DNA of 64,000 nt from the NCBI GenBank assembly GCA_963726745.1, contig CAVSDR010000006.1:800001-864000 (forward strand), in the 5' to 3' direction. The translations under genes were made by a program, and so were the position numbers. Every line of letters begins with the position of its first letter. The first letter of the stretch is position 1. The notes beneath the pieces were generated by a model. That model was not told where the DNA came from. It searched no databases and worked only from the letters and a program-made list of their open reading frames with translations. This document shows positions 449 to 58,989 of the stretch, piece by piece. Origin of the DNA: an uncultured Verrucomicrobiae bacterium. Lineage in GTDB: Bacteria > Verrucomicrobiota > Verrucomicrobiia > Chthoniobacterales > UBA10450.

Positions 449-2602
449 TCAGTGCAGGGAGTAGATTTCGATGAGGCCCACCCCGGTCGTGCCGCCGGCG
501 CCGCGCACAATCGCGGTGTGCGGCGTGGGCGGGAGCGTGGCTACGATCGCTGACTCAAGTTCATTGGCCGGCGCGAGTGTGCTGGCAAGGATTTCCGCTT
601 CCTGATGGCTGCGCCAGTCATCGTTGAACGCGATGCGCGTGCCGTCGCGATTAAACAATTCGACGGTCGGATCGGGGACTTTGCCGGCCAACGGCAAGGA
701 GGGGCCGAGTGCGCGGACGAGGACTTTCTTGGGACCGGGTCCACTAATGATGAAGCCGCCGATGAGGACCTGGTCGCCGAGGCCGACCCGGCCGCGCGTG
801 GAAAGGTTGAGCAGGTCGGGTCCGAGACGGCGATCGAGATCATATAATTCCAAGAGGCCACTGCCGGTGGCGCCATGCGCGCCGCGCAGGATGGCAGTAT
901 AGCCGACGCCATCCGCATCCGCGGGCAACCGGGCGAGGATGGCGGCTTCGTTCGCGGAGGCGGGCGCGAGACCGGTGTCGATGATTTCCTGCTGGTTGGT
1001 GTTCGCGTCCCAATTGTCGTTCGTCGCGATAAGGGCGCCGGTGCGATCGTGCAATTCGAGCACGGGATCGGCGAGCCCGTCGCTGATCCCGCTCGCGCCT
1101 AACGAGGGTCCGAGAGCACGCAAGAGGACGCGTTTCGGCGACTGGCCGCGGATAATAAATCCACTGATGGCCACGTCGTCGCCGGTGCCGACCTGGACGC
1201 GCGCAGAAACGTTCGCCAGCTGCGTCCCCCCCGGGGCCGGCGGATATTGCGCAATGAACTGGCTGCGCGTGCCCGGCCAGATGGTGTTCGCGGACGGGGC
1301 GGTATCCTGCACGCCCGTCAGCATCAGGCGATAGCTCTCGTTAGGCAGGAGCGGCGAAACCGTCAGGAGGACGGTGTCGGGTTCGGGGCCGAGGGCGGCT
1401 GCGGAGACGGTGGCACCGCGGTCGAGGGCGTAGTTCGAGGCGCTGGCCGCCGTTCCCGGATCCACGTGGCTATTGAAGCGGACGAGGAGATGGGAGGTGT
1501 CCTCGAAGAGGAAAACCGAGAGCACTTCCAGCGGGCTGGCGATCCATTGCCGCAACGCTCGCATGGCGGTTTCGTGGACGACGTTTTTCGCCAGAGGCGG
1601 CATTTTGAATTGATCGAGCGCATTGTCCCTTTGGTGCAGGGGGGAGCCGGCGAGATCGCGAAACTTCACATAAGAATTGAGCAGGTTTTGATTTTCGAGC
1701 GGGGTGTTAAAACGGCCGTCGTAGCCCGGGCCGAAACCGCCCGGTCGATGGCAGTGCGAACAGTTCGCGTCGATCCACGAGCGCATGCGGTGCTGCACGG
1801 TGGCCGTCGGGTCGCTGACCGCAACGGCACGGGGATAGGTCGCGAAATTTTCCTCCCTAAGCGCAGGGTTGAAGAGGCCGAGATGGTTCAGCGTGCGCAA
1901 TTGATTGTCCGTCCGTCCGGTCGACGGGTAAGTGAAATTCCCATTCAACTGATGCGTCTTCGGCCCGAGGACGTAATTCGCCTGCTGGTTATGGCAGAAG
2001 AGACAATCGGCCCGGCTCGGATAGGAGTAACGTTGCAGGCGCGTGACTCCGGACGCGTTGGTGATCGCGATGTCCTCTTCAAAGCCGCCGGGCAGCAGGT
2101 CCGCGTCGCTTTCGTCCGGGCGCCACTTGTAGGTCACGCCGTAGACCGCGCCTTCGGCATTGCGCACGAGAAGGCGCGTCTCGAGCCGTTTCCGTGCGCC
2201 CGTCGCTTCATCCACGATCAGCTCGAAGTGCTTCACGAAGACGGTGCCGTTAGGGAAGGTCCATTCGCCCATGGGCACGAAGTTAATTTGCTCTGCCGGT
2301 GTGTAGGGCGCCCCGTCGTTCGGGACCGCCATCCAGCGGGTTTTGAGCGCACCATCCGACCAGAGCGGCGAGTTTACCGTGAAAGGAACCAGCGCATCGA
2401 TCGGTGTGAGCGTTGATAAATCCCGGAAAGCGCCGGTCGCGGAGAGAACGGGCGGGAAAGCGAACGCGCCGCTCATCGGCGGCAGACGGTTATTCAAATA
2501 CGGGCCGATGGGCGCGCGCCCATCGAGACCGGGAGGCGCCTGCGCGCAAGCCACGGAGGCGAGCCACACGCTCGCGCAGCCGCAAAGAAATGCTCGCCCC
2601 AT
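449..2602 (-). CDS. Secreted diheme c-type cytochrome-domain protein (SO2930-like) with Ig-like domain and two C-terminal 'N(L/V)S(T/A)R' domains
   Basis: Signal peptide; two CxxCH motifs (CLFCH, CSHCH); 'SPLWSDGALKTRW', 'FPNGTVFVKHF', 'RLETRLL', 'MPPL'; C-terminal repeats NVSARVQVG / NLSTRGRVG. Confidence 0.75.
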   Translation of the reverse strand: MGRAFLCGCASVWLASVACAQAPPGLDGRAPIGPYLNNRLPPMSGAFAFPPVLSATGAFRDLSTLTPIDALVPFTVNSPLWSDGALKTRWMAVPNDGAPYTPAEQINFVPMGEWTFPNGTVFVKHFELIVDEATGARKRLETRLLVRNAEGAVYGVTYKWRPDESDADLLPGGFEEDIAITNASGVTRLQRYSYPSRADCLFCHNQQANYVLGPKTHQLNGNFTYPSTGRTDNQLRTLNHLGLFNPALREENFATYPRAVAVSDPTATVQHRMRSWIDANCSHCHRPGGFGPGYDGRFNTPLENQNLLNSYVKFRDLAGSPLHQRDNALDQFKMPPLAKNVVHETAMRALRQWIASPLEVLSVFLFEDTSHLLVRFNSHVDPGTAASASNYALDRGATVSAAALGPEPDTVLLTVSPLLPNESYRLMLTGVQDTAPSANTIWPGTRSQFIAQYPPAPGGTQLANVSARVQVGTGDDVAISGFIIRGQSPKRVLLRALGPSLGASGISDGLADPVLELHDRTGALIATNDNWDANTNQQEIIDTGLAPASANEAAILARLPADADGVGYTAILRGAHGATGSGLLELYDLDRRLGPDLLNLSTRGRVGLGDQVLIGGFIISGPGPKKVLVRALGPSLPLAGKVPDPTVELFNRDGTRIAFNDDWRSHQEAEILASTLAPANELESAIVATLPPTPHTAIVRGAGGTTGVGLIEIYSLH

Positions 2603-2613
2603 GAAGGTGCGGA

Positions 2614-7557: not shown

Positions 7558-8545
7558 ACCCGGGCGCTCCGTTTCGATCGTCGGCACCGGCTCTTACGTC
7601 CCGGAGCGGATTCTTTCGAACGAAGACCTCTCGAAAATCGTCGACACGACCGACGAGTGGATCACCACCCGCACCGGGATCAAACAGCGCCGCATCGCCG
7701 CGGCCGACGAACAGACGAGCGACATGGCCACGAAGGCTGCGCTCGCCGCGATGGAGCAGGCCGGCGTGACCGCGGGCGAGATCGATCTCATCCTCGTGGC
7801 CACGGCCACGCCGGACATGATGTTTCCCGCGACCGCTTGCTTCGTGCAGGCGAAAATCGGCGCGAAGAAAGCCGCCTGCCTCGATGTCTCCGCGGCTTGC
7901 GCGGGCTTCCTTTTTGCCGTCGAGATCGGGCAGCAATTCATCACCTCGCACACCTACGACACCGTGCTCGTGATCGGCGCGGAGAAGCTCAGCTCGATCA
8001 CGAATTGGACTGATCGGAACACCTGCGTGCTCTTCGGCGACGGCGCCGGTGCGGTCATTCTGCGCCACCGCGATGCCAGCAGCCACGGCGTGATCAGCAC
8101 TCACATCGGGAGCGACGGAAATTTTGCCGACATTCTCTACATGCCGGGTGGCGGCAGCCGCACCCCGCTGACCGCGGAGAACGTGGGCGACAACCTGCAG
8201 ACGATCCACATGTCCGGGAAGGACGTCTACAAGCAGGCGGTCATCTCCATGCTCGCGGCCGCGAACAAGGCGCTCGAGACCGCCGGTCTAACGACCGATG
8301 ACATCGCCTGCGTGATTCCGCACCAGGCGAACCTGCGCATCATCGAGGCCATCGGTGAACGGCTCAAAATTCCCAAGGACCGCGTCTTCGTGAACGTGGA
8401 CAAATACGGGAACACTTCCGCCGCGGCGGTGGCGATTGCGCTCGATGAGGCAAATCGCAGCGGCCGGATCAAACAGGGCGATTACGTCTTGCTGATTGTT
8501 TTTGGCGGCGGGCTCACCTGGGCCAGCAGCGTGATGGAGTGGTAG
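7520..8545 (+). CDS. fabH: Beta-ketoacyl-ACP synthase III
   Basis: 'AACAGF', 'PHQANLRII', 'YGNTSAA', 'FGGGLTW'. Confidence 0.97.
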   Translation: MKRQPRSSPRSARPGRSVSIVGTGSYVPERILSNEDLSKIVDTTDEWITTRTGIKQRRIAAADEQTSDMATKAALAAMEQAGVTAGEIDLILVATATPDMMFPATACFVQAKIGAKKAACLDVSAACAGFLFAVEIGQQFITSHTYDTVLVIGAEKLSSITNWTDRNTCVLFGDGAGAVILRHRDASSHGVISTHIGSDGNFADILYMPGGGSRTPLTAENVGDNLQTIHMSGKDVYKQAVISMLAAANKALETAGLTTDDIACVIPHQANLRIIEAIGERLKIPKDRVFVNVDKYGNTSAAAVAIALDEANRSGRIKQGDYVLLIVFGGGLTWASSVMEW

Positions 8546-8574: not shown

Positions 8575-8913
8575 CTAACGAAGATGCGCCGACTTCTCCG
8601 CCAGGTCTTTTTCCAGCCGCGCGCACATCAGGTCACAGAGCTCCATGATCTGCGGATCGGAGATGAAGTAGAAGGCGTTCACGCCCTGCTTTCTCCGGTC
8701 GACCATTCCCACCTCCATGAGGATGCCGAGATGCTTCGAGACGTTCCCCTGGCTCAGGCCGGTGAGGCCCACAAGCGCGGTGACGTTTTGCTCGCCCTGT
8801 TCAAGCGCAACCAGGAGTGCCAGGCGCGCCGGTTCGCTTAAAACCTGGAAGCGCCGCGCGACCATTTGCAGGCCGCGGGCCGAGAGGCGCGGTTTACTGG
8901 ATTTTCGGGGCAT
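8575..8913 (-). CDS. ArsR/SmtB family repressor
   Basis: 'FQVLSEPARLALL...NVTALVGLTGLSQGNVSKHLGIL...RRKQG'; C-terminal 'LCDLMC'; divergent from sulfur operon. Confidence 0.9.
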   Translation of the reverse strand: MPRKSSKPRLSARGLQMVARRFQVLSEPARLALLVALEQGEQNVTALVGLTGLSQGNVSKHLGILMEVGMVDRRKQGVNAFYFISDPQIMELCDLMCARLEKDLAEKSAHLR

Positions 8914-8994: not shown

Positions 8995-9258
8995 ATGAAA
9001 CTTGTAAATCTTTCGGCCCATTACCCGCTGATCACGGCGCTTCTCCTTGGAGCCCTCCTCGGGGCGGCGCTGGGCTACTTCGGCCAGTGCACTTCCGGCA
9101 CCTGCCCACTCACTTCCACTTGGTGGCGCGGCGCGCTTTATGGCGCCTTTCTCGGCGTCCTCTTTGGGTTGAGTTCGGAGCGTCGACCGGCGGCGAAGGT
9201 CGAATCAGGCAAGGACAGAAACCCGTCACGTGGCGAGGTGGCCGACTCCTCTCGTTAG
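8995..9258 (+). CDS. Small membrane protein, DUF6132-like (CxxGTCP motif)
   Basis: Two hydrophobic helices flanking 'GQCTSGTCPLTS'. Confidence 0.7.
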   Translation: MKLVNLSAHYPLITALLLGALLGAALGYFGQCTSGTCPLTSTWWRGALYGAFLGVLFGLSSERRPAAKVESGKDRNPSRGEVADSSR

Positions 9259-11333: not shown

Positions 11334-11916
11334 TCGACCCCGGTTCTGCCGTGAAAAAAGGGAGCGAAAAACCCGAGGCCGCGATCGCCCCGCCGGCCAA
11401 GCTCTTCCTCGCGCTCGTCGCCGGTCTCGCCTTCGGTTTCCTTCTGCAAAAGGGCGGCGCGGCCAAGTTCAACATCCTCATCGGCCAGCTCCTCCTCCAG
11501 GATTGGACCGTCGCGAAGATCATGCTCAGCGCGATCGTCGTCGGCATGCTCGGCATCTACCCGCTGCACGCGGCGGCGAAGGTGAACCTCCACCTGAAAC
11601 CGACCCGCCTCGGGCCGCAGATCATCGGCGGGCTCGTCTTCGGCGCCGGCTTCGCACTCATCGGCTACTGCCCCGGCACCGCCGCGGCCGCGCTCGGCCA
11701 GGGAAACTTCGACGCGCTCTTCGGCATGACCGGCCTCGTCATCGGCTCCTATCTTTACGCGGAATCTCCGGCTGGCTGAAGCGGATGGACTGGAAAGACC
11801 TCGGCAAAGTCACCCTGCCCGACACGATCAAGGTCGCGCGCCTCCCCTTTGCCCTCGGCTTCGCGGTTCTCCTCATCGGCGTTCTCTTCGCGCTCGAAAA
11901 GCTGACCATTCGTTAG
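11330..11916 (+). CDS. Second YeeE/YedE family subunit (frameshift near 11765)
   Basis: 'FGFLLQKGG', 'GGLVFGAGFALIGYCPGT'; C-terminus 'GWLKRMDWKDLGKVTLP' in another frame. Confidence 0.88.
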
Positions 11917-11924
11917 GCAGCGAG

Positions 11925-13147: not shown

Positions 13148-14688
13148 GCGTGGCAACTTGTCATGCGCTGGTGCTTCGCTGCTCTCCTTTCGTTCCTTTG
13201 CTCGCGATGAGTGTGCAGGGCGAGCCGCGGCGCATCGTGCTCCTGCACACGAACGACATCCACGGGCACATCACCGCGTGGCGCGGCTGGGAAGGTGAGC
13301 TCGCCGGCAAATCAGTCGGCGGGTTCGACCGGCTCGCGGCCGCGGTAGAAAAAGAACGCGCGCAGGCCGGCGCCGACCGCGTCCTCCTGCTGGACGCGGG
13401 CGATGCGATCGGCGACACCATGCTGGCCGACCTGACGCAAGGTGCGGCAGTGCTCGAGTGCATGGCGGCGCTCGGTTACGACGCGATGACGCTCGGCAAT
13501 CACGAGCCCGACTTCGGCGTGGCGACGCTGCGCCGTTACCTCGGGGAAGGGAAAGTGCCGATGCTGGCCGCGAACGTCCGCGAGAACGGCGGGAACTTCG
13601 CCACGCAATTTCAAATCAAGGAGGTCGGTGGCGTAAAGGTCGGCTTGCTCGGGCTGGCCTATCCGAACACGCCGCTCACGACCGCACCGAAGAACGTCGA
13701 AGGCCTGGCGTGGGAAGCGGATTCCGCGGCGGTCGTGCGCCGGCTCGTGCCGAAAATGCGCGCGCAAGGCGCGGAGCTCATCGTCGTCCTCTCGCATCTC
13801 GGCCTCGGCGCGGATAAGACACTCGCCGAAGCCGTCCCGGAAATAGACGTCATCGTCGGCGGTCACAGTCACAACCGCATGGAGCGCGCGCTCGCAGTTG
13901 GCTCGACCTTGATCGTGCAAGCCGGTGCGCATCTTTCCGACCTCGGCGTGCTCGAGCTCGCGGTGGAAGCCGGCCAGGTGACCGCGCACCAGCGGCGACT
14001 TATCCCGCTCACAGGCCCGGCCGATCCCGCCATGACCGCGCGGATCGCCAAAATCCGGAAGCCTTTCGCGGCCCAGCTCGATGAGTCGTTAGGCGAGGCC
14101 GCCGAGCCGATCGTCCGCGCGCAAACTCTCGCGGGGACGGACGCGCGTCAGCGCGACGAGCAATCGCCGGCTGACTCGCTCTTTGCCGACATCCTCCGCG
14201 CGAAAACAGGGAGCGAAATCGCGCTCCTGCCCGGCGTCGGCTACGGGGTAGCCATTCCGGCCGGACCGATCACCGCTGAGATGCTGCGCAACCTCGTGCC
14301 GCACGACGGCAAGGTTGTGACCATGACGCTGACCGGCGCGCAGATCCGCGAGATTCTGCAGCAGGCAGTCGAGAACAGCTACAGCAACGACCCGCAGCGG
14401 AAGGTCGGCGGGATGATCCAGGTGAGCGGCCTGCGCTTCACCCACGACGAGAAACGCGTGCTCGAGGATTCGTTAGACCCGAGCCGCACCTATCGCGTCG
14501 CGACCAACTCCATGCTCGCGCAAGGCGGCCATCGTTACCGCACGTTCCGCGACGGCGGCGACCGCGCCGAGCAGGGCGGACAATTTCAAACGATCGCTGA
14601 TTGGATCAAAACCGAGAAAAGAGTGAACGCGCCCACCGATGAACGCATCTCACGAAAGACCGCCGGAGCTCCCGCCCCGCAAAAATAA
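13144..14688 (+). CDS. Secreted 5'-nucleotidase/SoxB-superfamily dimetal hydrolase (true start probably ATG 13163 with an indel near 13198)
   Basis: 'HTNDIHG', 'DAGD', 'GNHE', 'SHLG', 'GGHSH'; SoxB-like C-terminal segment; ATG 13163 gives signal-like MRWCFAALLSFL. Confidence 0.85.
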   Translation: MSVATCHALVLRCSPFVPLLAMSVQGEPRRIVLLHTNDIHGHITAWRGWEGELAGKSVGGFDRLAAAVEKERAQAGADRVLLLDAGDAIGDTMLADLTQGAAVLECMAALGYDAMTLGNHEPDFGVATLRRYLGEGKVPMLAANVRENGGNFATQFQIKEVGGVKVGLLGLAYPNTPLTTAPKNVEGLAWEADSAAVVRRLVPKMRAQGAELIVVLSHLGLGADKTLAEAVPEIDVIVGGHSHNRMERALAVGSTLIVQAGAHLSDLGVLELAVEAGQVTAHQRRLIPLTGPADPAMTARIAKIRKPFAAQLDESLGEAAEPIVRAQTLAGTDARQRDEQSPADSLFADILRAKTGSEIALLPGVGYGVAIPAGPITAEMLRNLVPHDGKVVTMTLTGAQIREILQQAVENSYSNDPQRKVGGMIQVSGLRFTHDEKRVLEDSLDPSRTYRVATNSMLAQGGHRYRTFRDGGDRAEQGGQFQTIADWIKTEKRVNAPTDERISRKTAGAPAPQK

Positions 14689-15273: not shown

Positions 15274-15696
15274 ATGAAAAACCTACTCGCATTTGCCCTT
15301 CTCGCCTTCATGAGCTCCAGCCCACTCGCCGCCGCCGAAATCGCGAAACACCGTGTCCTCTTCGAGGTCACGATGGGCGGCGAAGAGCAGTGGACCGGCG
15401 TGCTGAACAACGTGAAGAACGTCCGAGCCGCGCTCGGCGCCGAGTCCACCGAGGTCTTCGTGGTCGCGCACAGCAACGGCCTCGGCCTGCTCCTGCAAAA
15501 GGAAAACAAATTAGCCGACCGGATCAAGGAACTCGCTGGCGAAGGCGTTATCTTTGCCGCCTGCGAGAACACGATGAAGAAGAAAAACGTGACCAAGGCC
15601 GACCTCCTGCCGGCCGCGACCACGGTCGATTCGGGCGTGGCCGAGGTGGTGCGGAAACAGGAAGCCGGCTGGAGTTACCTCAAGTCGGGGAGCTGA
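15274..15696 (+). CDS. Secreted DsrE-family protein
   Basis: Signal peptide; 'VVAHSNGL', 'FAACENTM', 'SGVAEVVRKQEAGWSYLK'. Confidence 0.85.
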   Translation: MKNLLAFALLAFMSSSPLAAAEIAKHRVLFEVTMGGEEQWTGVLNNVKNVRAALGAESTEVFVVAHSNGLGLLLQKENKLADRIKELAGEGVIFAACENTMKKKNVTKADLLPAATTVDSGVAEVVRKQEAGWSYLKSGS

Positions 15697-42093: not shown

Positions 42094-42097
42094 CGAC

Positions 42098-44708: not shown

Positions 44709-47700
44709 TTATTCTCGCGCCGTCGGCAGCGCCTCGCCCTCGCCCAGGAGCTGACGGAACGCGACCGTGGCGCTCGAGGACTCCGGCGCCAAGGCGAGCG
44801 GCGGCTGGCCTTTGGCTTTCAGCGCGTCGTTCAAGGCCGGGAGTTCCTTGGCGTTCAGTTGCTCAAACTCCCGGGTGACGTCGTCGAGCTCTTTCCGGAG
44901 CGCATCGATGTAAGCCAGCTGGTAATCGCCGGGCTTGCCTTCGTAGCTCAGGAGCGCGCCGTAAAGTTGGTCGGTGTGTTCACGCAGGCGTTCTTCGCCG
45001 GTAATCGCACCGCCTTCCGTTGTCGCCACGATCTGCTTCCGGACCTCGTCCAACTTGCTGTCAAAATCAGCCAGCACTTTGTGCAGCGGATCTTCCTGCG
45101 GGACTTCCGCGGAACGCTTCGCCACCGCCGCGCGCAGCGGCAAAATTTTATCCATCAAATCGCTCTCCGCGCCGAAGAGCGCATGCACCCGCATGGCCGC
45201 ATCGTATTGCGCCTTGCGGTCGGCCGCGGTGAACTTTGCGCGCCGATCGAGGGCAACGTTCACCTTGGTTTCAATCACCTGGCCGTTCTTCGTTAGGCGG
45301 ACGGTGTAGGTGCCCGGCAGGACGCGCGGACCGCGCAACCCGGCGCCAGCGATCTGCGCCGCCGGCGGCACCCGTGGCGGCTTTTCGCGCATGCTCCAGG
45401 TCACGCGGTTGAGCCCGGGACGCTTGCTCGCGGGCAGGGTATCGACCACGCGACCGCTCGGATCGAGAACTTCGATTTTCATTTTCCCGAAGAGATGACG
45501 GGAGCGCTGATAGTAGGTGATGACTGCCGCATCCGGCGGATTGTCGCCCGTAAAGACGGCGTCGCCATTGGCCCAGCCGCCGTTGCCCTGGATGCGCTGC
45601 TGCACCGGCTTCGCATCGACGAAGACCGCTTCCTGCGACATCACCTGCGGGGTAAGCGCGCGCAGCGGCGTGATGTCGTCAACAATCCAGATGCCGCGGC
45701 CGTGAGTCGCGAGCACGAGCTCGTTGTCGCGCGGCTGGATCGCGATGTCGCGCACGGAGACGGCCGGGAAGCGGCCGCCCTTGAATTGCGCCCAGGCTTT
45801 GCCGCCATCGATGGAAATGTAGAGGCCGAATTCCGTGCCCAGGAAAAGTAGCTCGGGCTTGACCGTGTCCTCCCGGATCACGTGCGCGTAACCCTGCACG
45901 CCGGAGAGCTCGTCTGGACTAACGAGTGGTTGCCAGGTCTGGCCGAAGTCGGCCGTCTTGTAGAGGTAGGCGGTCATGTCGCCAAAGGTGTGGCGATCGA
46001 AGGTGACGTAGGCCGTGCCCGGCGCGAAATTACTCGCCTGGACCCAGCTCACCCAGGAATTAGGCGGCAAGTTGGGGACGTTCTTGACCACGTTGTTCCA
46101 GGTCTTCCCGCCGTCTTTCGTGAGCTGAAGATTGCCGTCGTCCGTGCCGACCCAGATGACGTTCTTGTCCTTGGGCGACTCGCTGATCGAGTAGATCGTG
46201 GTGTGCGCTTCGGCCGCGGAGTTGTCGATCGTGACGCCGCCGGATTTCTCCTGCTCCTGCTTCTTCGGATCGTTCGTGGTCAGGTCGGGCGAGATGCGAT
46301 CCCAGCTCTGGCCCTGGTTGCGCGAACGGAAGAGAAACTGCGCGCCGAGGTAGATCGTCCCCTTCTCGTTCGGCGAAAGCGCGATCGGCGTGTTCCAATT
46401 CCAGCGCAGCTTCTCCTTGTAGTTCGGCTTCGGCTGAATGTCGCGGCCTTGGAGCGTTTTCCGGTTTACCCGGCCGATCGCGCCGCCCTGCGCTTCGGCG
46501 TAGAGGTAATCGGGATCCGACGGATCGGAGAACATCCAAAAGCCGTCGCCGCCAAACATGTTTTCCCATTGGGCGTTGTTGATCCCGCCAGGGTATTGCG
46601 ATTGGCCGACCCAGGAGCTGTTATCCTGCAAGCCGCCGTAGACGCGATAGGGATCGGCGTCGTCCACGCTCACATGGTAGAACTGCGAGATCGGGAGGTT
46701 GCCCGCCTTCCACCATTTGCTCCCGCCATTAAAGGAATACCAGAGGCCGCCGTCATCGCCCGCGTAGACCGTCTGCGGGTTCGTCGGATCGATCCAGACA
46801 TCGTGCACGTCGCCGTGCGCGCCCTGGAATCCGCCCACGGTGGCGAAACTTTTGCCGGCATCATCACTCACGATGAGCGCGCCATCGGTCTTGAAAACGC
46901 GGTCGGCGTTCTTCGGATCGACGATCAAATTAGCGAAATAAAACGGCCGCCAAACCATCCAGGTGCTCTTGTCGCGCTTATCCCAAGTGCCGCCGCCGTC
47001 GTCGGAAACAAAGAGCGCGCTGTCGGTTGATTCGACGAAGCAATAAACCCGCTGCGGATTAGACGGCGCGATCGCGACCGCGAGGCGTCCATAAGGCTTC
47101 TTGCCGAAACCTTTGTTCGCTTCCGGCGTGACCTCGGCCCAGGTGGCGCCGCCATCGGTCGACTTAAACAAGCCGCTCGCGCTTGGCCGCTTCCGGGCCC
47201 TCGCCGCCCGAGCGGAAGGTCCAGCCTTTGCGGCGGAAGTCCCACATGGTGGCGAAGAGGATATTGGGGTTGGCCGGATCCATCGCGATCCCGGAACAAC
47301 CGGTGGAAAGGTTGCCCCCTTTGAGAATGAGCTTCCAGTTCAGGCCGCCATCGGTCGTCTGGTAAAGCCCGCGCTCGGCGCTATCGCTCCAGAGCGGCCC
47401 GGGGACGGCGACATAAGCGGTCTCGCTGTTTGTCGGGCTGACGATGATCTTCGCGATCCGCTCGGAAGCAGGCAAGCCGATGCGGTTCCAGGTTTCGCCG
47501 CCATCGGTCGAGCGATACATCCCGTTGCCGATGGAGACGCTGTTGCGCGTCCAGGCTTCGCCGGTGCCCACCCAGACGTTCTTCGGGTTCTTCGGATCAA
47601 GCGCGATTGCGCCGATCGATTGCGCCGGCTGTTCGTCGAAGACCGGGCGGAAGATGGTGCCGTTGTCCTCCGATTTCCAAACGCCGCCGCTGGCCGCGCC

Positions 47701-47886
47701 GACGTAGATCGTGGTCTTGCCGTTGTCCTCGCGATGAGCTGCGAGCGCGGAGATGCGTCCGCTCATGGTGGCCGAGCCAATATTGCGCGCGCCCAGGCCG
47801 GAAATGGTCGCGGAGCTGTAAGGCGCCTGCTGGGCCGAGGCCAGGCCGGCGATGCCTAACGAGAGGATGATGGAGAGGTAACGCAT
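44709..47886 (-). CDS. Secreted BNR/Asp-box (sortilin/VPS10-like) beta-propeller protein (frameshift near 47185)
   Basis: 'RNIGSATMSGRI', repeated 'S/T-x-D-G-G-x-T-W' boxes, 'YGGLQDN', 'ATHGRGIW'. Confidence 0.85.
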
Positions 47887-48646: not shown

Positions 48647-48785
48647 GGGTTGAACCGCAGCGAGGCGGGCAGGGGAAGATAAGCCTTTCCCCGCATTGGC
48701 AAGTCGCAGGCGCTGCCTAACGAGAAATTTCTTGCCAGCGGCGAGACTTTCCCGCCACTCTGCGCGCATCTGCCTTAACCCTACC

Positions 48786-51773
48786 ATGAAAACAACCAAG
48801 CTCCCCTTCTCCCGCATGTTGCCGGCAGCTGCGCTGGCCTTGCTCCTCTCCGCCGGGTCCGCCGCGGCCCAGCTCGCCGTCAGCGCGCCCACCCCGCCGG
48901 CGGCCGATCCCAACGGCAACGCCGTTCCCGTCCAGGAAGCGACCACTGACCGTGTCTTCGTCACCGGCTCGAACATCCCCACGGCAGCGGAAGTCGGGCC
49001 GAACCCGGTGCTGAACGTGAACCGGGACTTGATCAACAAGAGCGGTGAACGCACCGCCGAGGAACTCCTGCGCAATCTCCCGGTGGCGAACGCCAACGGC
49101 GTCCCGGTTTCCAACAACGAGAACGGCTCGAATACCGCGGTCGGCGCAGCGACAATCGCGCTCCGCGGCTTCGACGCGCGCGCTACCCTCATCCTGCTCG
49201 ATGGCCGCCGCGTGGCGCCTTACCCCACGAGCAATGCCGGGATCGTCTTCATCGATCTCAACTCCATCCCGCAATCGTCGATCGAGAGCATCGAGATTCT
49301 GAAGGACGGCGCCTCCACCACCTACGGCGCGGATGCGGTCGCAGGCGTGGTCAACGTCAAGCGCTGGAAAAACTTTAAAGGCGCGCAGGCCACGATCGAA
49401 TATGGGAACACGACCGACAAAGACTCGGGCGAATTCAATAGCTCGCTCCTCTTCGGCGTAGGCAACGGCACGACCACGGTCTCGGGCACGGTGAACTACT
49501 ATCACCGCAACTCGATCTTCAATCGCGACCGCGATTACTCCGCGGTCCCGCCGTTCCTGAGCAGCAATGCGAGCCCGTATAACCTGCAGTTGAGCAAAGC
49601 GGCCGTGGCTGCGGCCGGCGGCACCGTCCTGCCGGGCGCGAGCGCGAATCAATTTGCCACCCCGCCTGATCGGACGAATGGCCTGGCCCCGGCAAATGCC
49701 TACCTCTATGGCAACAGCCGTGTCCGTTCCGGCCCAAACGGTTTTAACTTCAACCAATTCTCCCTCTCCTTCCCGGAATCGGAGCGCTACGGCGGCTACC
49801 TCTCGATGGAGCACAAGGTCTTCGGCGACGCGCTCGTGCTCTACGGCGACTCGATGTATCAAAACGTGAAGACGCACAACGAGCTCGCGCCCCCGGCCAC
49901 GGGCAACTTCCAAACGCCCGGGCAGATCACGATCGCGATTCCTCCGCGCGTCCCGAATCCCGCAGGCACGACACCCTTCGGCGGGCCGACCTATGCGGAG
50001 ACCGGACTCGCGCCCGGCGCCTTCAATCCATTCAACCCCTTCAACCAAATCATTTCCGGCGGTTCGCGCGCGCGCCTCGCAGAATTTGGCAACCGGCTCT
50101 TCGACAACGAAACCGATGCCTTCCTCGCGACCCTCGGCTTCAAAGGCGACAAATTGTTTAACGGCACCTGGGGTTACGATGCCGGCTTCCGTTACAGCCA
50201 GGTGAAGAACACGACCACCGGGACGCAGCTCTCCTCCTCGCGTTTCACCCGCATCCTGAACCAGGCCGACCCGATCTTTAATCCGGCCTCGTCGCAGTAC
50301 ATCGGCACGACGACCGCGTTCAATCCCTTCGGCGATTACCGCAACCCGGTCGCCTCGAACCAGGCCACGGTGGAATACGCGCGCGTCCATCCAGTAGACA
50401 GCGACATCTCGAAGCTGGCCACGCTCGACGCCACGGTCTACACGACCGCGCTCTTCGACCTCCCGGCCGGCGGCGTGGGCTTCGCCTTTGGCGGTCAATT
50501 CCGCCGCGAATCGCTCAGCGAAGATCCAGACCAGCTCAACATCATCGGCGACATCGCGGGCAACTCCGCGATCGCCGCGGCGCGCGGCGGGCGGAAGTCG
50601 TTCGCCTTCTATTCGGAGACGAACGTGCCGATCTTTAGCCAGCAGAATGCGATCGGCGGTTTCCATGCGCTCGACCTGACCGCGGCGGTGCGTTACGAGG
50701 AATTCCGGAACAACAACACCAACGTGGCCGTGCCGAAATTTGGCCTCCGCTGGCAGCCGCTGGACGATTCCCTGACCCTGCGCGCGACCTGGGGCAAAGG
50801 CTTCCGCGAGCCCGCGCTCGAGGAGCTCTACACCGCGCCCATCTCCGATATCCAGCCGTCGCGCGATCCGATGAACGGCGGCGCCTTTGAGCCGGAGACG
50901 CAGACGCTGATCGTCGCGAACCCGAACCTCGCGCCGGAAGATTCCGAGACCGTGGCCTTCGGCGCGGTTTACTCGCCGAAGTATCTCGCCGGCCTCACCC
51001 TTACGCTCGACCTCTGGCAGATCGAGCGCACCGGCGTGGTTGAGACTTCGCCGCTCGACGCCGTCCTCCAGCGCGAACTTGCCGGCACTCTCCTCCCCGG
51101 CGAACGCGTGGAGCGTTTCGCCGATGGCTCGATCGCCCGCGTGGTCGTGCCCTATCGCAACGAAGGCAGCCAAAAAGCCAACGGCGTCGACATGGGGATT
51201 CAATACATTCGCGAAACTTCCTTCGGCACCTTCACCTCGCTCACGCAGGCGACTTACCTGAATTCCTTCGAACGTCAGCGCCTCGCAGGCGGACCGATCG
51301 ATCAACTCGCCGGCCAATCGAGCGAGCTCGGCGCTTCGAACGAGGGCTACTATCGCTGGCGCGCGAACAGCAGCCTCGATTGGGCCTGGAAAGGTTTCGA
51401 CCTCGTCAGCACTGTCCGTTTCATCGATGGCTTCCACGAAGAAGACGCGAACTTGAACCGCCACGATGTCGAGCACCGGTGGCTCTTCGACCTCCAGGCC
51501 TCTTACGATTTCGGCGCGCTCGTCTCGCACGCGCAGGCGACCGCGGGCTACGCGAAGGACAGCAAGGCCGGCCCGGCCACCGTCAGCACTGCGAGCGCGA
51601 GTGCGTGGGATCGGTTGCTCGAAGGCACGCGCCTGACCGTGGGCGTGACCAATCTCTTCGACAAGGATCCGCCGTTTGCGTCCGGCCAGGGCGGCAATGC
51701 GGTCGGCTATCCCGGCTTCACCTACGACTCGACTGGGCGCTTCGTTTATGTGCGCCTGATCAAGAAGTTTTAG
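48786..51773 (+). CDS. TonB-dependent receptor
   Basis: 'VFVTGSNI', plug 'LRG...TLILLDGRR...IEILKDGASTTYGADAVAGVVN'; C-terminal Phe. Confidence 0.93.
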   Translation: MKTTKLPFSRMLPAAALALLLSAGSAAAQLAVSAPTPPAADPNGNAVPVQEATTDRVFVTGSNIPTAAEVGPNPVLNVNRDLINKSGERTAEELLRNLPVANANGVPVSNNENGSNTAVGAATIALRGFDARATLILLDGRRVAPYPTSNAGIVFIDLNSIPQSSIESIEILKDGASTTYGADAVAGVVNVKRWKNFKGAQATIEYGNTTDKDSGEFNSSLLFGVGNGTTTVSGTVNYYHRNSIFNRDRDYSAVPPFLSSNASPYNLQLSKAAVAAAGGTVLPGASANQFATPPDRTNGLAPANAYLYGNSRVRSGPNGFNFNQFSLSFPESERYGGYLSMEHKVFGDALVLYGDSMYQNVKTHNELAPPATGNFQTPGQITIAIPPRVPNPAGTTPFGGPTYAETGLAPGAFNPFNPFNQIISGGSRARLAEFGNRLFDNETDAFLATLGFKGDKLFNGTWGYDAGFRYSQVKNTTTGTQLSSSRFTRILNQADPIFNPASSQYIGTTTAFNPFGDYRNPVASNQATVEYARVHPVDSDISKLATLDATVYTTALFDLPAGGVGFAFGGQFRRESLSEDPDQLNIIGDIAGNSAIAAARGGRKSFAFYSETNVPIFSQQNAIGGFHALDLTAAVRYEEFRNNNTNVAVPKFGLRWQPLDDSLTLRATWGKGFREPALEELYTAPISDIQPSRDPMNGGAFEPETQTLIVANPNLAPEDSETVAFGAVYSPKYLAGLTLTLDLWQIERTGVVETSPLDAVLQRELAGTLLPGERVERFADGSIARVVVPYRNEGSQKANGVDMGIQYIRETSFGTFTSLTQATYLNSFERQRLAGGPIDQLAGQSSELGASNEGYYRWRANSSLDWAWKGFDLVSTVRFIDGFHEEDANLNRHDVEHRWLFDLQASYDFGALVSHAQATAGYAKDSKAGPATVSTASASAWDRLLEGTRLTVGVTNLFDKDPPFASGQGGNAVGYPGFTYDSTGRFVYVRLIKKF

Positions 51774-51813
51774 GCGGCAACTTCAGCGCCCAAAGCGCTG
51801 GCTAAAATTCCCC

Positions 51814-54136: not shown

Positions 54137-56113
54137 ATGCGCTCCCATCAACTTGGAAACCGCCTTCCCGCCCTAACGAGTGCATTTGCGGCGTTGCTTC
54201 TCGGCCTCGCCGCGGCGCCGGCGCAGGACGCCTTGCCCACGCGTTTGGGCCAGCCTCCGTCCGCCACTTCGCAGTCCCCGCGGGAGTTGAAAAAGCTCTC
54301 GCTCGAGGAGTTGGTGGATGTGGAGATTACCTCCGCCTCGCGCCGGCCGGGGCTGCTCTCGCAAGCGGCGAGCGCGATCGATGTGGTCACGGCCGAGACC
54401 ATCCGCCGCTCTGGCGTGACCAGCCTGCCGGATGCCCTCCGCCTCGCGGCCGGCGTGCAGGTGGCGCAGATCGACGGCCACAGCTGGGCGATCTCGGCCC
54501 GCGGTTTCAACCTCGGCACCGCGAACAAGCTCCAGGTCTTGATGGATGGCCGGAGCCTCTACACGCCGCTTTACTCCGGCGTTTTCTGGGACGTGCAGCA
54601 GACCTTTCTCCCGGACCTCGAGCAGATCGAAGTGATCCGCGGGCCCGGCGCGACGCTGTGGGGCGCGAATGCAGTCAACGGCGTAATCAACATCCGCTCG
54701 AAGAACGCGAAGGACACGCAAGGCTTCCTGGTCGATACCGCAGGCGGCGAGGAGCTCGGCTACGCCGGCGTCCGCTACGGTGGAAAAATAGGCAGCAACA
54801 CGTTCTACCGCGCCTGGGTGATGCATACGCGGCGCGATGAGCTTTCGCTCGCGGATGGGAGCGGCGCAGGCGATGCGACCGATTTCACCAAAGGTGGCTT
54901 CCGGATCGATTCCACTGTTGGCGTGGACGACGCTCTAACCCTCCAGGGCGATGGCTACGGCGGAAGCTTTGGCCAGCACAACGCGGGCGACATCAGCGTG
55001 GATGGCGGCAACGTCCTGGCCCGTTGGACGCACGAGCTCGCGGCCGATTCCAACCTCACCGTCCAGACCTACTACGACCGGACGCATCGCCTCATCCCGG
55101 CGCTCTTCGAAGAGGAGCGGAACACCTTCGACCTCGAGCTCGAGGGACGCCGCGTCTTTAACCGGCACGACTTTGTCTACGGGGCGAACTACCGCCTCTC
55201 CGCGGACGAGATCGGCAATCTCGGGCCGCAGTTTGCCTTCCTCCCGGACGACCGCACGGTCCACCTCGTCAGCGGCTACCTGCAGGATGAGTGGCACGTA
55301 GTCCCGCGGCGCTTCTCGTTAGGCCTGGGCTCGAAGTTCGAGTGGAATAGCTTTAGCGGCTTCGAGCTGCAGCCGAGCGGGCGCTTCATCTGGACGCCGT
55401 CGAATACGCAAAGCCTCTGGGGCGCGATCTCGCGCGCGGTGCGCACGCCCACGCGGATCGACCAGGATATTTTCGCGCCCAATCCCAGCACGGGCAGCGC
55501 CTTCAGTTTCGTGGGCAACCGCGGTTTCCGTTCGGAAGTGGTCGTGGCCTACGAGCTCGGCTACCGGGTGGAACCGACGCCGCGGCTGGCCTTCGACCTC
55601 GCCACTTATTACAACGAATACGACAACCTCCGCAGCATCGAACCGCGGGGCGGACCGGGGACGCCCCTGCGTTTTGACAACAAGATCGAAGGCAGCTCCT
55701 ACGGCGCGACCTTGAGCACGCACTGGCGCGTAACCGATGGCTGGCGTTTAGACGGCAACTTCAGCGCGCTCCATCTCGATCTCCACGGCGCGCCCGGCTC
55801 GCTCGATCCCGCGAAGGGCCGGGCCAACGGGAACGATCCCGACTTCTTCTTCACCGTGCGCTCGTCGCTCGACCTGCCGTGGCACCTGCAGTTCGACACC
55901 GTGGTGCGCTACGTCAGCGACCTGCCACAGCCGGCGACCCCGGCGTACACCGCGCTCGACCTCCGCCTCGCCTGGAAGCCGCGTCCGAATTTCGAGGTCG
56001 CGCTCGTGGGCCGCAATTTGCTCGATCCACAGCACCCGGAATTTGCCAGCGCCACGGCGGTCACGCGCGAGGTCGACCGGAGCGTCTTTGCCACTCTGAA
56101 ATGGACCTACTAA
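54137..56113 (+). CDS. TonB-dependent receptor-like protein of a YfiR/kinase module
   Basis: 'LSLEELVDVEITSASRR', 'IEVIRGPGATLWGANAVNGVINI'; aromatic C-terminus. Confidence 0.9.
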   Translation: MRSHQLGNRLPALTSAFAALLLGLAAAPAQDALPTRLGQPPSATSQSPRELKKLSLEELVDVEITSASRRPGLLSQAASAIDVVTAETIRRSGVTSLPDALRLAAGVQVAQIDGHSWAISARGFNLGTANKLQVLMDGRSLYTPLYSGVFWDVQQTFLPDLEQIEVIRGPGATLWGANAVNGVINIRSKNAKDTQGFLVDTAGGEELGYAGVRYGGKIGSNTFYRAWVMHTRRDELSLADGSGAGDATDFTKGGFRIDSTVGVDDALTLQGDGYGGSFGQHNAGDISVDGGNVLARWTHELAADSNLTVQTYYDRTHRLIPALFEEERNTFDLELEGRRVFNRHDFVYGANYRLSADEIGNLGPQFAFLPDDRTVHLVSGYLQDEWHVVPRRFSLGLGSKFEWNSFSGFELQPSGRFIWTPSNTQSLWGAISRAVRTPTRIDQDIFAPNPSTGSAFSFVGNRGFRSEVVVAYELGYRVEPTPRLAFDLATYYNEYDNLRSIEPRGGPGTPLRFDNKIEGSSYGATLSTHWRVTDGWRLDGNFSALHLDLHGAPGSLDPAKGRANGNDPDFFFTVRSSLDLPWHLQFDTVVRYVSDLPQPATPAYTALDLRLAWKPRPNFEVALVGRNLLDPQHPEFASATAVTREVDRSVFATLKWTY

Positions 56114-56646
56114 GGCGGAGCCGGGCGGTCCTGGCGCTGCTGGCCGCGGCGCTCCTTTGCGCGCCCGCGCCGGCCCGCGCGGCCCAGCCTAACGAGTATG
56201 CGCTCAAGGCGGTCTTTCTCTACAATTTCTGCCGCTTCATCGACTGGCCGGACGCGGCTTTCAGCTCTCCGACCGATCCGTTGGTCATCGGCGTGCTCGG
56301 CGAGAATCCCTTCGGCACGCTGCTCGAGGAAGCGGTCAGCGATGAGACTTTTCGCGGCCGCAACATCCGCATCGAGAGCTACCGCAGCGCGCGCGAGATC
56401 GGCCGCTGCCAGTTACTCTTTGTCAGCGCCTCGGAAAGCGCGCGCCTGCCCGAGACCCTGGCCGCGGTCGCCGGGCGGAGCGTGGTGACCGTGGGCGAGA
56501 CGGAAAACTTCGTGGAGCACGGCGGGATGATCGCGCTGGTCGCGGATCGCAATCGCGTGCGGCTCCTGATTAACCCGGGCCTGCTGAGGGCCGCCCGCCT
56601 GGAGGTGAGCTCGAAGCTCCTCCGGGTCGCGGAGATCGTTCGTTAG
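56101..56646 (+). CDS. YfiR family periplasmic protein
   Basis: 'EYALKAVFLYNF..FIDWP', 'CQLLF', 'SSKLLRVA'. Confidence 0.9.
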   Translation: MDLLRRSRAVLALLAAALLCAPAPARAAQPNEYALKAVFLYNFCRFIDWPDAAFSSPTDPLVIGVLGENPFGTLLEEAVSDETFRGRNIRIESYRSAREIGRCQLLFVSASESARLPETLAAVAGRSVVTVGETENFVEHGGMIALVADRNRVRLLINPGLLRAARLEVSSKLLRVAEIVR

Positions 56647-56649
56647 GCC

Positions 56650-58960
56650 ATGGACCTGCGCCTGCGGAACAAGCCGATCCAGCAAAAGCTCACGCTGGTG
56701 ATTTTGCTCACGAGCAGCTTTGCCCTGCTGCTTATGGGGACGGCTTTGATCACTTATGAGGTGGTCACTTTCCGGCGCTCGCTCACGGTGAACTTGAGCG
56801 TGCTCGCGCAGATCATCGGCTCGAACAGCACCGCGGCGCTCGCCTTTGAAGATCAAAAGAACGCGCGCGAAATCCTGAGCGCGCTGACCGCGGAACGGCA
56901 GGTGAGCGCAGCCGCGATCTACGACCAGCGGGGCCAGATCTTCGCCAGTTTCCCGGAGAACCGCGACCGGGCGGAATTCCCCGCGCGGCCAGAGAATGAC
57001 GGCTATTTTTTCGCGGGCTCGCACTTGAGCATGTTCCAGCCGATCCGGCTGGAACAGCAACGCCTCGGGACGATCTATGTGCGGGCGGAGCTGCGGGAAA
57101 TGTATTCGCGGCTTCTGGTCTACGCTGTTCTCCTTTTATTCGTGGCCGGGTGTTCCTTCCTCGGCGCGCTCCTGCTCTCGCGCGTGCTCCAGCGCCACAT
57201 CTCCGCGCCCATCCTCGCACTCGCGAAAGTGGCGACCGCGGTCTCGGAGCGGCAGGATTATTCCGTGCGTGCCGTCAGCCACGGGACCGATGAGCTGGGG
57301 CAATTAACCACCGCTTTCAATCAAATGCTCACCCGCATCGGCGAGAGCAACGCCGCCCTCACCCGCAGCGAAGAACGCCTGCGGCTCGCGCTCGAAGGTT
57401 CGCAAACCGGCACCTGGGATTGGAACATTCTCACCGGGCGCGTGACCTGGGATGAATTCATGTATCCGCTTTACGGGCGCGGGCCGGAGGAATTTACCGG
57501 CATGGCCGGCAACGCCCTGCGCTATGCGCATCCCGACGATGGCGCGCGCATCGAGCAGGCGACGCGCGTGGCGGTGGAGCAGAAGCTCGACCTCGACATT
57601 GGCTTTCGCATCATCCTGCCGGATGGCTCCATCCGCCACATGGTCTCGCGCGGCCGGCCGTTCTACGACGACGAGGGACGCCCCGTGCGGATGGCCGGGG
57701 TGAGCCTGGACGTGACCCAAAGCAAGGAAGCGGAGGAGGAGTTGAGCCGCGCGAAAGAAGCCGCGGAAGCCGCGAGCAAGGCGAAGGATCACTTCCTCGC
57801 GATCCTGAGCCACGAGCTGCGCACGCCTTTGACGCCGGTGCTGGCCACCGTGGCCGCACTTCAGGATGACGAAAACCTGCCGGAGCCACATCGCGCGCGA
57901 ATTGGAAATGATCCGGCGAAACGTGGAAGTGGAAGCGCGCCTGATCGACGACTTGTTAGACCTGACCGGCGTGGCCCGTGGCAAACTGGAGCTGCATCGC
58001 CGGCCGACTGATGTGCGCCCGCTCCTGGAGCACGCGCTGCAGAACTACTGCGCGGGCGCGGCCCGGACGAAAAACCTCCGCGTTTCGATGGAAGTGACCG
58101 CGGCGGAGACGCACGTGCTCGGCGACAGCTCGCGGCTGACCCAGGTGTTTTGGAACCTGCTGCAAAACGCCTGCAAGTTTACCCCTGCCGGCGGGACGAT
58201 CGACATCCGCGTTTTTAACGAGCCGCAAATCATCGCCGGCACGAGCGAGGACGGGACCGACACCTCGGCGGAAGTGACCGACCTGGTGGTGCTGGTGAGC
58301 GACAGCGGCATCGGCATTGGCGAAGAAGACATGCCGCGCATCTTCAACGCCTTCGAGCAGGGCGAACGTTCGCGCACCCGCATCTTCGGCGGGCTGGGAT
58401 TGGGCCTGGCGATCAGCCGCGCGATCGTGGAATTACACGGCGGGATCATCACCGCGCGGAGCGATGGCCCGGGCAAAGGCACCCAGATTACCATCCGGCT
58501 GGCGACCGTGCCCGAGCGGGCCGAGGCCGCGCCGAGTCCGGACCAAGGCCATGCCGCTGCCGCCCAGGACCGGGCGTTGCGCATTCTCCTGGTGGAGGAT
58601 CATCCGGATACCGCGCAGCAATTGAGCCGGCTCTTGCAGCGCTCCGGTCACACCGTGACCTGCGCCGGGAGCCTGGCGGAAGCGCAAGCGGCGATGGACG
58701 CGGCCGGCAAGGAGCGCGCGGCTTGCCCCTTCGATCTTTTAATCAGCGACCTGGGCCTGCCGGATGGCAATGGCCAGGAGCTGATGCGCGACCTCGGCGC
58801 CTGTCTTGGGCTCCCGGGCATTGCCTTGAGCGGATTTGGAATGAAGGAAGACATCGCCGCCAGTCTCGCGGCCGGCTTCGCCCGGCACCTGACGAAGCCG
58901 GTCGACTGGCAGGAATTAAAGACGGTCATCCGCGAGCTCGCGGCCCGCCTTCCGGCCTAA
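56650..58960 (+). CDS. Hybrid histidine kinase (periplasmic sensor-HAMP-PAS-HisKA-HATPase-REC; frameshift near 57888)
   Basis: 'NSTAALAFED', 'DELGQLTTAFNQML', 'HPDD', 'SHELRTPL', 'NLLQNACKFT', 'GLGLGLAI', 'LLVEDH...LISDLGLP'. Confidence 0.92.
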
Positions 58961-58989
58961 CGAGTTGACGGCAAAGTTAGAATGCGCGG

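Follow-up and report, generated by a model that had tools for sequence, protein, structure and literature searches.

The stretch of DNA analysed here (the window) comprises 64,000 nucleotides, G000:C6:800001-864000, of an uncultured bacterium of the Verrucomicrobiota, whose genome is labelled G000, with other genomes labelled G001 and so on. It carries many copies of a short non-palindromic word, the 7-mer CTAACGA/TCGTTAG and its 9-mer form GCCTAACGA (class 1). We found that this word is strongly over-represented throughout the genome, that it acts at the level of DNA, and that it is accompanied by a second word with the same properties (class 2). With a probability of roughly 50%, we propose that both words are self tags resembling DNA uptake sequences, which would have been spread by biased uptake and recombination.

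In the window, the 7-mer occurs 29 times, 14 times on the + and 15 times on the - strand, and is extended to CCTAACGA in 21 copies and to GCCTAACGA in 18. These numbers were never reached in 100 dinucleotide-preserving shuffles of the window, which gave a mean of 3.52 and a maximum of 11 copies of the 7-mer, and a mean of 0.22 and a maximum of 2 copies of the 9-mer. A preliminary description of the window had reported at least 29 7-mers in balanced orientation (14 vs 15), the same numbers of longer matches, and chance expectations of about 4 7-mers and 0.4 9-mers; our recount agrees with all of this and finds exactly 29 copies at the places given there, some of the coordinates being one base off. 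Copies are found in a variety of unrelated housekeeping genes (fabH-like, 5'-nucleotidase-like, TatD, serA, EamA, MacB/FtsX, BNR/sortilin-like and TonB-dependent receptor genes), and others are intergenic.

The enrichment extends to all 7 contigs of the assembly, a metagenome-assembled genome (MAG) of 3.41 Mb with 63.7% GC and 94.7% completeness. The 9-mer is present in 1312 copies (681 on the + and 631 on the - strand), or about one per 2.6 kb, compared with 19.7 expected from a third-order Markov model, which corresponds to an approximately 60-fold excess. The 7-mer has 2025 copies, and GCCTAACGAG, with 820 copies against 6.1 expected from the same model, is the commonest 10-mer of the genome despite its four A/T at 64% GC. 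Within the 9-mer, positions 1, 2 and 8 are tolerant (CCCTAACGA, 134 copies; GGCTAACGA, 240; GACTAACGA, 123; GCCTAACAA, 121), while CTAAC and the final A are strict, giving CTAACGA as the strict core. Single-base variants at positions 3-6 number 289 against 364 expected from a background built without CTAA-containing sequence, and GCCTAATGA, the C-to-T variant at the CpG, has no copy in the genome. Since there is no halo of decayed copies, the class-1 word is maintained and not merely inherited. The flanks of the aligned copies are weak (a G in 62%, then a T in 43%, then A/T three bases on, with a slight C/T preference upstream), their information does not exceed 0.4 bit per position, and the favoured context is YYGCCTAACGAGT. 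The element is thus a bare word and not part of a longer repeat.

To determine at which level the word acts, we used a set of 2930 genes predicted with a codon-usage model of our own (87% coding). Of the 1312 9-mers, 947 (72%) lie wholly within genes, 201 lie between genes and 164 extend across a gene end. When synonymous codons were shuffled gene by gene, which keeps each protein and its codon usage, rare codons brought in by the word included, only 23.4 ± 4.3 genic copies were left (n = 20, maximum 33) compared with 951 observed; shuffling the order of codons left 8.9. All four stop-free frames are used (TCG-TTA-GGC, 429 copies; xGC-CTA-ACG-A, 220; xxG-CCT-AAC-GA, 201; xTC-GTT-AGG-C, 97), and the two stop-containing frames have no copies inside genes. 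At gene ends the word supplies the stop codon itself: 108 genes end with GCC-TAA-CGA and 77 with CGT-TAG-GC, together 6.3% of genes. Although TTA accounts for only 3% of Leu codons, 429 of the 752 Ser-Leu-Gly tripeptides (57%) are written TCGTTAGGC; likewise, 55% of Pro-Asn-Asp/Glu tripeptides are encoded with the class-1 word, CCT making up 9% of Pro codons. The proteome is skewed in the same direction, with Ser-Leu-Gly (SLG) at 1.58 times and Pro-Asn-Glu (PNE) at 2.37 times the product of the residue frequencies. The class-1 word therefore acts at the DNA level and not at the protein level. The preliminary description had argued from several frames and rare codons that protein sequence could not explain the word, which the four-frame use and both kinds of shuffle bear out; a protein-coding explanation is ruled out by the same results.

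The two orientations of the class-1 word are equally frequent along the genome. A 50:50 strand split fits all 33 bins of 100 kb (chi-square 36.6, p = 0.30) as well as bins of 200 kb (p = 0.31), and the strand ratio correlates with neither GC skew nor gene strand. Because the split is even in every bin, no knowledge of origin or terminus is needed, and the result argues against a Chi- or KOPS-like reading; the contrast with polar Chi/KOPS and palindromic HIP1 drawn in the preliminary description accordingly stands, as the word is neither polar nor palindromic. Counts per 50 kb are near Poisson (mean 18.9, s.d. 4.9 compared with 4.3). Copies less than 50 bp apart are rarer than chance (20 vs 60 expected), so inverted-pair terminators of the Neisseria type are absent. 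Gaps of more than 10 kb lacking class 1, in contrast, are more frequent than expected (15 vs 5), and many have a low GC content. Among the contents of the largest are an O-antigen-type polysaccharide cluster (25 kb, GC 0.58), an exosortase/surface-protein region that includes an AbiEii gene, giant proteins bearing dockerins (in two regions), and a minor-pilin operon. Judged from this gene content, the word-free stretches are variable, exchangeable parts of the genome.

To follow how copies arise, three genes of the window were aligned with those of up to five congeners at about 70-80% DNA identity. Most aligned class-1 copies are private to one or two species, and the non-carriers have ungapped orthologous sequence that is 2-3 substitutions off the word (e.g., GGCCTAACGAGG compared with GGCCCATCGAGG). 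A family-wide set of 79 serA orthologues contains 46 7-mers at 11 columns. At the column of the word at 39594..39602 (-), read TCG TTA GGC (Ser-Leu-Gly) in the serA-like gene of the window, 12 of the 79 orthologues carry the core. Here Lys-Thr-Leu-Gly, encoded as ACG CTC GGC with free synonymous variation, has become Lys-Ser-Leu-Gly in the 12 carriers, all of which have TCG TTA and 11 of which have GGC (the twelfth GGT), while their flanking codons still vary; the non-carriers vary freely at the same synonymous sites. A single intermediate, ACG TTA GGC, was seen. At the column of the word at 39959..39967 (+), read G CCT AAC GA (Pro-Asn-Asp), the core is found in 17 of the 79 orthologues as CCT AAC GA. 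This site corresponds to a hypervariable residue in Pro-Leu-Pro-x-Asp-Ser, where x is any of 14 residues, and CCT AAC GA arose there in at least 4 separate clades of the gene tree. The conservation of synonymous sites, to which the preliminary description had pointed as a check, is thus evident in the carriers. The words thus originate in place by point substitution, repeatedly and at positions that the protein tolerates, and their silent positions are then frozen. As a side observation, two serA loci (L145 and L151) from MAGs titled Alphaproteobacteria and Nitrospirota fall within the Verrucomicrobia clade and likely represent mis-binned contigs.

When class 1 is masked, a second family of words emerges, with the core GYYG[G/T/A]CTAAW. 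Its most frequent 9-mers are GCTGGCTAA (479 copies), GCCGGCTAA (318) and GTCGGCTAA (315), with GCTGTCTAA among the further variants, and the consensus extends past the core to SAWNKYGYYGGCTAAWTY. The core has 1275 copies in G000, 643 of them on the + strand, with a 50:50 split over the 33 bins of 100 kb (p = 0.88). Class 2 uses all four open frames and encodes no common peptide, and the 952 genic copies compare with 43.5 ± 6.9 after synonymous shuffles; it supplies the TAA stop of 67 genes. Both words are asymmetric, GCCTAACGA and GYYG[G/T/A]CTAAW each differing from its own reverse complement, and they share YYG-S-CTAA, followed downstream by CGAG in class 1 and by WT in class 2. A promoter or gene-start signal was considered for class 2 and rejected, as there is no pile-up upstream of gene starts. 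A repeat element or a bipartite class-1/class-2 site was rejected as well, since the flanks are unconserved and the two words keep no fixed spacing (within ±300 bp, counts per 20-bp bin scatter about the 8.6 expected). After masking of both classes no third word emerges: nothing is enriched beyond about 10-fold, and the strongest remaining signal is a (GCCAAC)n tandem repeat. Each of the 5 class-2 copies in the aligned genes is private to G000, even in comparison with G015, which fits a young word. Separately, the stop codons of G000 are used in near-equal thirds at 64% GC (TAG 1006, TGA 967, TAA 957), and the excess of TAA and TAG stems in part from the two words (108 + 77 + 67 genes).

We then examined the spread of both words among relatives, using the reversed word as the control for enrichment and at least 3 times the control as the threshold within the family. 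The genomes G001, G008, G046, G048, G052 and G059, for which counts are included, are flagged as unpublished. Across the other 24 genomes of the genus, copies of the class-1 10-mer number 51-1549 compared with 13-57 for the control, and the density within the genus extends from nil to about 480 ten-mers per Mb. The 7-mer shows no excess in the congeners G002, G003, G005 and G012, whereas G024 has 3449 copies. Among 61 genomes from 36 genera of one Chthoniobacterales family, about 41 reach the threshold (maximum 1549 copies) and about 10 lie at or below 1.6 times the control. By contrast, class-1 counts are 0-14 and never exceed the control in other families of the order (16 genomes, 15 families). 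The class-1 word thus represents an old trait of the family, with a density that rose and fell many times. In a tree of rpoB, a single gene with moderate support, the outgroups adjoin the word-rich G013 and G024 (support 92/67), and word-poor genomes are scattered among richer ones. A 395-kb sample of the word-poor G002 retains a weak remnant of the 9-mer (16 vs 1 expected), and the same sample contains no other strong word that might serve as a replacement dialect.

Class 2 has a much narrower range. It is enriched in 3 of the 25 scanned genomes of the genus (G000, 958 vs 76; G011, 394 vs 74; G015, 254 vs 102) and shows a weak excess in G052 of another genus (190 vs 72), while it is below the control nearly everywhere else among the genomes scanned. 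The holders do not form a clean rpoB clade because G002 and G018, which have no class 2, sit among them. The class-2 excess of G052, like the word-richness of G001, rests on unpublished genomes. As an observation apart, G002:C3:235356-242712 and contigs C7, C13 and C21 of G028, both otherwise word-poor genomes, contain same-strand matches to CTAACGA or the 10-mer at a spacing of about 500 bp, which probably reflect a repeated domain of a giant gene and not the genome-wide word.

Several known systems invite comparison. The uptake signal sequence (USS) of the Pasteurellaceae is an asymmetric 9-mer core with weak flanks that occurs on both strands about once per 1-3 kb, mostly within genes; it distorts codon and peptide usage and is conserved in the family with variant types. 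The DNA uptake sequence (DUS) of the Neisseriaceae is a family-wide 10-12-mer with dialect-like variation between lineages and is scarce in accessory or imported DNA; there, the minor pilin ComP reads the DUS. HIP1 is a cyanobacterial palindrome that is hyper-abundant within genes, and an origin from a methyltransferase and a mismatch endonuclease has been proposed; we know of no reader for it. Chi and KOPS are strand-polarised by replichore and few-fold enriched. Among these, the Haemophilus-type USS is the closest likeness, with single copies inside genes in several frames, both strands used equally, distortion of codons and peptides, and conservation in the family. The words described here differ from it in belonging to the phylum Verrucomicrobiota, in sequence, in comprising two co-dominant words, in lacking an excess of one-off core variants and in a density that varies from none to the maximum within one genus. 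With the DUS they share dialect-like lineage variation, scarcity in accessory DNA, and the presence of type IV pilus genes with several minor pilins; class 2, which shares the properties of class 1 but is confined to few species, is reminiscent of the dialects that known uptake sequences show. In contrast to the DUS, the copies are mostly intragenic and not intergenic, and no conserved ComP-like pilin tracks the word among three pilins and one operon profiled. HIP1 is likewise a hyper-abundant DNA-level word running through genes, but it is palindromic, whereas both words here are asymmetric. Elements of the repetitive extragenic palindromic or miniature inverted-repeat transposable kind differ in that no longer conserved or hairpin element surrounds the words and 72% of copies are wholly within genes.

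According to PMC12378983, sequence-specific DNA uptake is described solely for the Pasteurellaceae and Neisseriaceae; the restriction of USS to a family and its role in recognising self DNA are covered in the same paper and in PMC7811141, and PMC12616744 presents the minor pilin ComN/PpdA as the predicted uptake-sequence receptor of the Pasteurellaceae. The combination of features found here is known to us solely from these uptake sequences, which favours a reading of the uptake type. Of the DUS-like tag suggested in the preliminary description, the sequence-level signature stands (action at the DNA level, no palindrome, no polarity, conservation in the family, scarcity in accessory regions), while the functional part, namely the uptake, its preference for the word and the nature of the reader, is what we infer from it. 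Under such a mechanism, cells of the family would take up free DNA by a type IV pilus and ComEC route, and a surface or periplasmic DNA receptor would prefer fragments bearing the word. As the preferred fragments would be taken up and recombined more often, substitutions that create or restore a word would spread in the population by molecular drive. The word would thereby build up on either strand wherever protein function tolerates it and stay rare in recently arrived DNA, and class 2 would be a tag of more recent origin, for which a few species would have an altered or extra receptor.

Genes that such uptake requires are present. G000 encodes ComEC and DprA, 10 matches to T2SSE-family ATPases, 3 secretins, PilC-like genes, at least 9 prepilin-like genes, two minor-pilin-like clusters, three tandem major-pilin-like genes and a weak match to a ComEA-type helix-hairpin-helix domain, so that the search for competence genes suggested in the preliminary description was positive. 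The two minor-pilin-like clusters lie at G000:C3:1,029,966-1,034,817 and C3:584,383-586,933, and the ComEA-like ORF at C2:230,178. However, 40 of 41 genomes of the order encode ComEC and DprA, word-free families included; uptake genes this widespread do not discriminate, though they are necessary for uptake. A candidate reader was sought by phyletic pattern among three pilins and one operon. The minor-pilin operon L071 (G000:C3:1,029,966-1,034,817), which encodes proteins of 226, 139, 247 and 113 aa plus one of 812 aa, sits in a 13.5-kb stretch without the class-1 core and has almost no DNA-level match in 30 congeners, so that this locus is hypervariable or was replaced recently. Word-free families have relatives of its 247-aa pilin that are just as weak, and none was found in the word-rich G001 and G010. 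The 194-aa pilin is present in word-rich and word-poor genomes alike; the 202-aa pilin occurs in G002 and G015, but no match to it was found in G013 or G024. The three tandem major-pilin-like genes (G000:C5:155143-158683) are nearly identical, encode 131-134 aa and are interleaved with DUF2079 and TPR genes.

A number of observations weigh against the interpretation of the words as uptake tags. Species that uniformly retain ComEC and DprA differ 30-fold in their density of class 1, and these two genes are also found in non-competent control species. None of the profiled pilins, nor the operon, tracks either word. Unlike the DUS, the words form no inverted pairs or terminators, as the scarcity of copies less than 50 bp apart attests. 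The distant genome L117 carries both serA words, and a sliding-window comparison gave no clear imported tract. Two co-dominant, unlinked words in one genome are not the textbook picture of an uptake sequence, and the absent halo of one-off variants fits site-by-site selection equally well. Broken competence genes, considered as a cause of low word density, offered no usable evidence: ComEC is split in G005, but rpoB is likewise split in G000, G002, G014 and G044.

A more general possibility, which we hold only tentatively, is that an undescribed system of the Verrucomicrobiota reads asymmetric words and in effect writes them into the chromosome, either by uptake combined with recombination or by some other process of conversion, with a specificity that can switch within a genus. 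An ancient family-wide CTAACGA and a newborn GYYG[G/T/A]CTAAW would then coexist, perhaps capturing the birth of a new dialect in progress, and the reader need not be a homologue of ComP or ComN.

The main rival to uptake-driven spread, close to the second option offered in the preliminary description (the site of an abundant DNA-binding or modifying protein), is that an abundant sequence-specific protein of the chromosome binds the words (as a nucleoid organiser, a helper of SMC or segregation, or a reader of self marks in a defence or repair system) and that they are kept by selection site by site. The even, near-Poisson spread with its scarcity of close pairs, the strict core without decayed copies, the frozen synonymous sites and the word-poor accessory DNA would all suit such a protein equally well. 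It would be unusual, however, for selection to maintain about 1300-2000 sites that alter amino acids (SLG, PNE) and recruit codons of 3% usage, and the function would have to be dispensable, since four congeners (G002, G003, G005 and G012) have no excess of the 7-mer. To our knowledge, the abundant chromosomal sites described so far (KOPS, Chi, matS, NBS, SBS) are polar, few, or few-fold enriched. We regard this explanation as rather improbable.

Still more doubtful is a footprint of sequence-biased repair or mutation, for example by a methyltransferase and a mismatch endonuclease that convert near-matches into the word. The slight deficit of variants at core positions 3-6 and the complete absence of GCCTAATGA are what a converting enzyme might leave behind, G000 has one C5 DNA methyltransferase gene, and the specificity of the words shifts within the genus as methyltransferase specificities do. 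Yet no match to the Vsr family was found in the 94.7%-complete G000, and orthologous sites are 2-3 scattered substitutions away from the word. Very-short-patch repair fixes one base, and near-matches are expected in only tens of copies each; it therefore cannot build 1312 copies. Nor do we know of a repair enzyme with an asymmetric specificity of 9-18 bp.

Signals of the Chi or KOPS type, read directionally by RecBCD/AddAB or FtsK, are likewise short, asymmetric, over-represented and variable between species, and the Chi of E. coli begins with GCTGG, as does class 2; the words here are non-polar, however, both classes being evenly split between strands in all 33 bins, and an enrichment of about 60-fold accompanied by amino-acid changes is far above the few-fold excess of Chi, which makes this reading very unlikely.

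An artefactual excess, or one that merely accompanies a repeated element, a protein motif or basecalling errors, has a probability close to nil: G000 does resemble a long-read MAG with frameshifts, but the flanks are unconserved, the copies occupy four frames, stop codons, intergenic sites and unrelated housekeeping genes, and the word is as dense or denser in relatives of other species assembled into hundreds of contigs. The soil run X1, which held 18% of the sampled words and may be the source sample, provides short contigs over the copies at 48715, 54173 and 56640, and among the 40 of 145 differences listed none lies inside these copies; the check for basecalling artefacts raised in the preliminary description thus gave no sign of one. 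As to assembly quality, rpoB of G000 (G000:C4:302308-306067) lies in two frames that meet near residue 340, and similar splits occur in G002, G014 and G044. These are probably frameshift errors of MAGs with few contigs (long-read), for which reason broken genes in such genomes are not to be trusted.

Judged by titles and the beginnings of abstracts, the papers listed in full-text searches contained no description of the 9-mer on either strand or of uptake sequences in Verrucomicrobia. New here are the family-level extent of the word, its 30-fold range of density, the distinction of a strict core from tolerant positions, the use as a stop codon, the repeated appearance at a hypervariable residue where silent sites are frozen, the gene content of word-free stretches, and a second, apparently young word; the preliminary description had missed the strict core and tolerant positions, the supply of stop codons and the second, independent word. 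If the uptake interpretation is true, this would be a third, unrelated case, implying that self-DNA tagging evolved repeatedly. One of the most abundant bacterial families of soil, relatives of Candidatus Udaeobacter, would then be naturally transformable with a preference for self DNA, and frequent homologous exchange would be implied in dominant soil bacteria. If the reader is not an uptake receptor, the finding would point to an unknown chromosome-wide DNA-reading system. As a marker, the word could serve in binning, in recognising accessory DNA within MAGs and in the design of DNA with a chance of being accepted by these organisms, and two words of different age in one genome offer a natural experiment on how the specificity of uptake or binding changes.

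The individual class-1 copies of the window are distributed as follows. The 9-mer GCCTAACGA lies twice inside the gene at 449-2602 (-), at 1097..1105 (+) and 1338..1346 (-). The core CTAACGA follows as GTCTAACGA at 8288..8294 (+, in the fabH-like gene) and 8575..8581 (+) and as GGCTAACGA at 9252..9258 (-), and GCCTAACGA recurs at 11910..11918 (-) and, in the 5'-nucleotidase-like gene, at 14086..14094 (-). Further cores are found as GTCTAACGA at 14470..14476 (-) and 15035..15041 (-) and as TCCTAACGA at 16077..16083 (+). The TatD-like gene carries GCCTAACGA at 17853..17861 (-), and a core in the form GACTAACGA at 19418..19424 (-) is the final copy ahead of a 15-kb desert. This class-1-free stretch (19425..34662, GC 0.595) contains 23S and 5S rRNA genes and about 10 protein genes, and still holds three class-2 words: GCCGGCTAAT at 22805..22814 (+), GCTGACTAAA at 33259..33268 (-) and GCTGGCTAAT at 33622..33631 (-).

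Class 1 resumes with GCCTAACGA at 34663..34671 (+). Beyond the two serA words described above, an intergenic core GGCTAACGA at 40793..40799 (-) and an intergenic GCCTAACGA at 41079..41087 (-) are followed by a core CCCTAACGA at 41806..41812 (-) and by the word at 42088..42096 (+), whose TAA terminates the EamA-like gene at 41119-42093. The word at 43550..43558 (+) in the MacB/FtsX-like gene is also present in G024, while G015 and G002 differ from it by at least 2 bases. The BNR/sortilin-like gene carries a word at 45290..45298 (-) and a core GACTAACGA at 45919..45925 (+); GCCTAACGA then occurs at 47854..47862 (+), and a word at 48715..48723 (+) in a TonB-dependent receptor gene is covered by a short contig of run X1. 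Such contigs also cover the core CCCTAACGA at 54173..54179 (+), with zero differences, and the word at 56640..56648 (-), with a single difference at 56775; the latter is intergenic in our own gene calls, as is the GCCTAACGA at 58955..58963 (+). The remaining copies of GCCTAACGA are located at 55316..55324 (-) and, between genes, at 56187..56195 (+).

Class 2 has 15 copies in the window. Besides those in the class-1-free stretch, these are GTCGGCTAAT at 15510..15519 (-), GCTGTCTAAA at 16333..16342 (+), GTCGGCTAAA at 39890..39899 (-) in the serA-like gene, and GCCGGCTAAT at 41526..41535 (-). The MacB-like gene contains GCCGGCTAAT at 42242..42251 (+), GTCGGCTAAA at 42788..42797 (-) and GTTGGCTAAA at 43733..43742 (+), each carried by G000 alone among 4 aligned orthologues, and the BNR-like gene contains GCCGTCTAAT at 47058..47067 (-), carried by G000 alone among 6. 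GCTGGCTAAA occurs at 50634..50643 (-) and, between genes, at 51797..51806 (+), GCCGTCTAAA at 55747..55756 (-), and GCTGGCTAAT at 62648..62657 (-).

Some further features were observed in passing. The 23S (24032-26890) and 5S (27125-27240) rRNA genes of the window have no adjoining 16S gene, and their upstream neighbour is an RNase PH-like gene on the opposite strand; the rRNA operon therefore appears to be unlinked. The gene at 29313-31187 (-) encodes a 624-aa protein whose long N-terminal part has no Pfam match, its GreA/GreB domains being confined to the last 170 residues. Elsewhere in G000, tandem arrays of the hexamer (GCCAAC)n with 17-39 units occur in six places, which include G000:C6:313696-313929, C3:82903-83070 and C6:1027519-1027668, plus three more.

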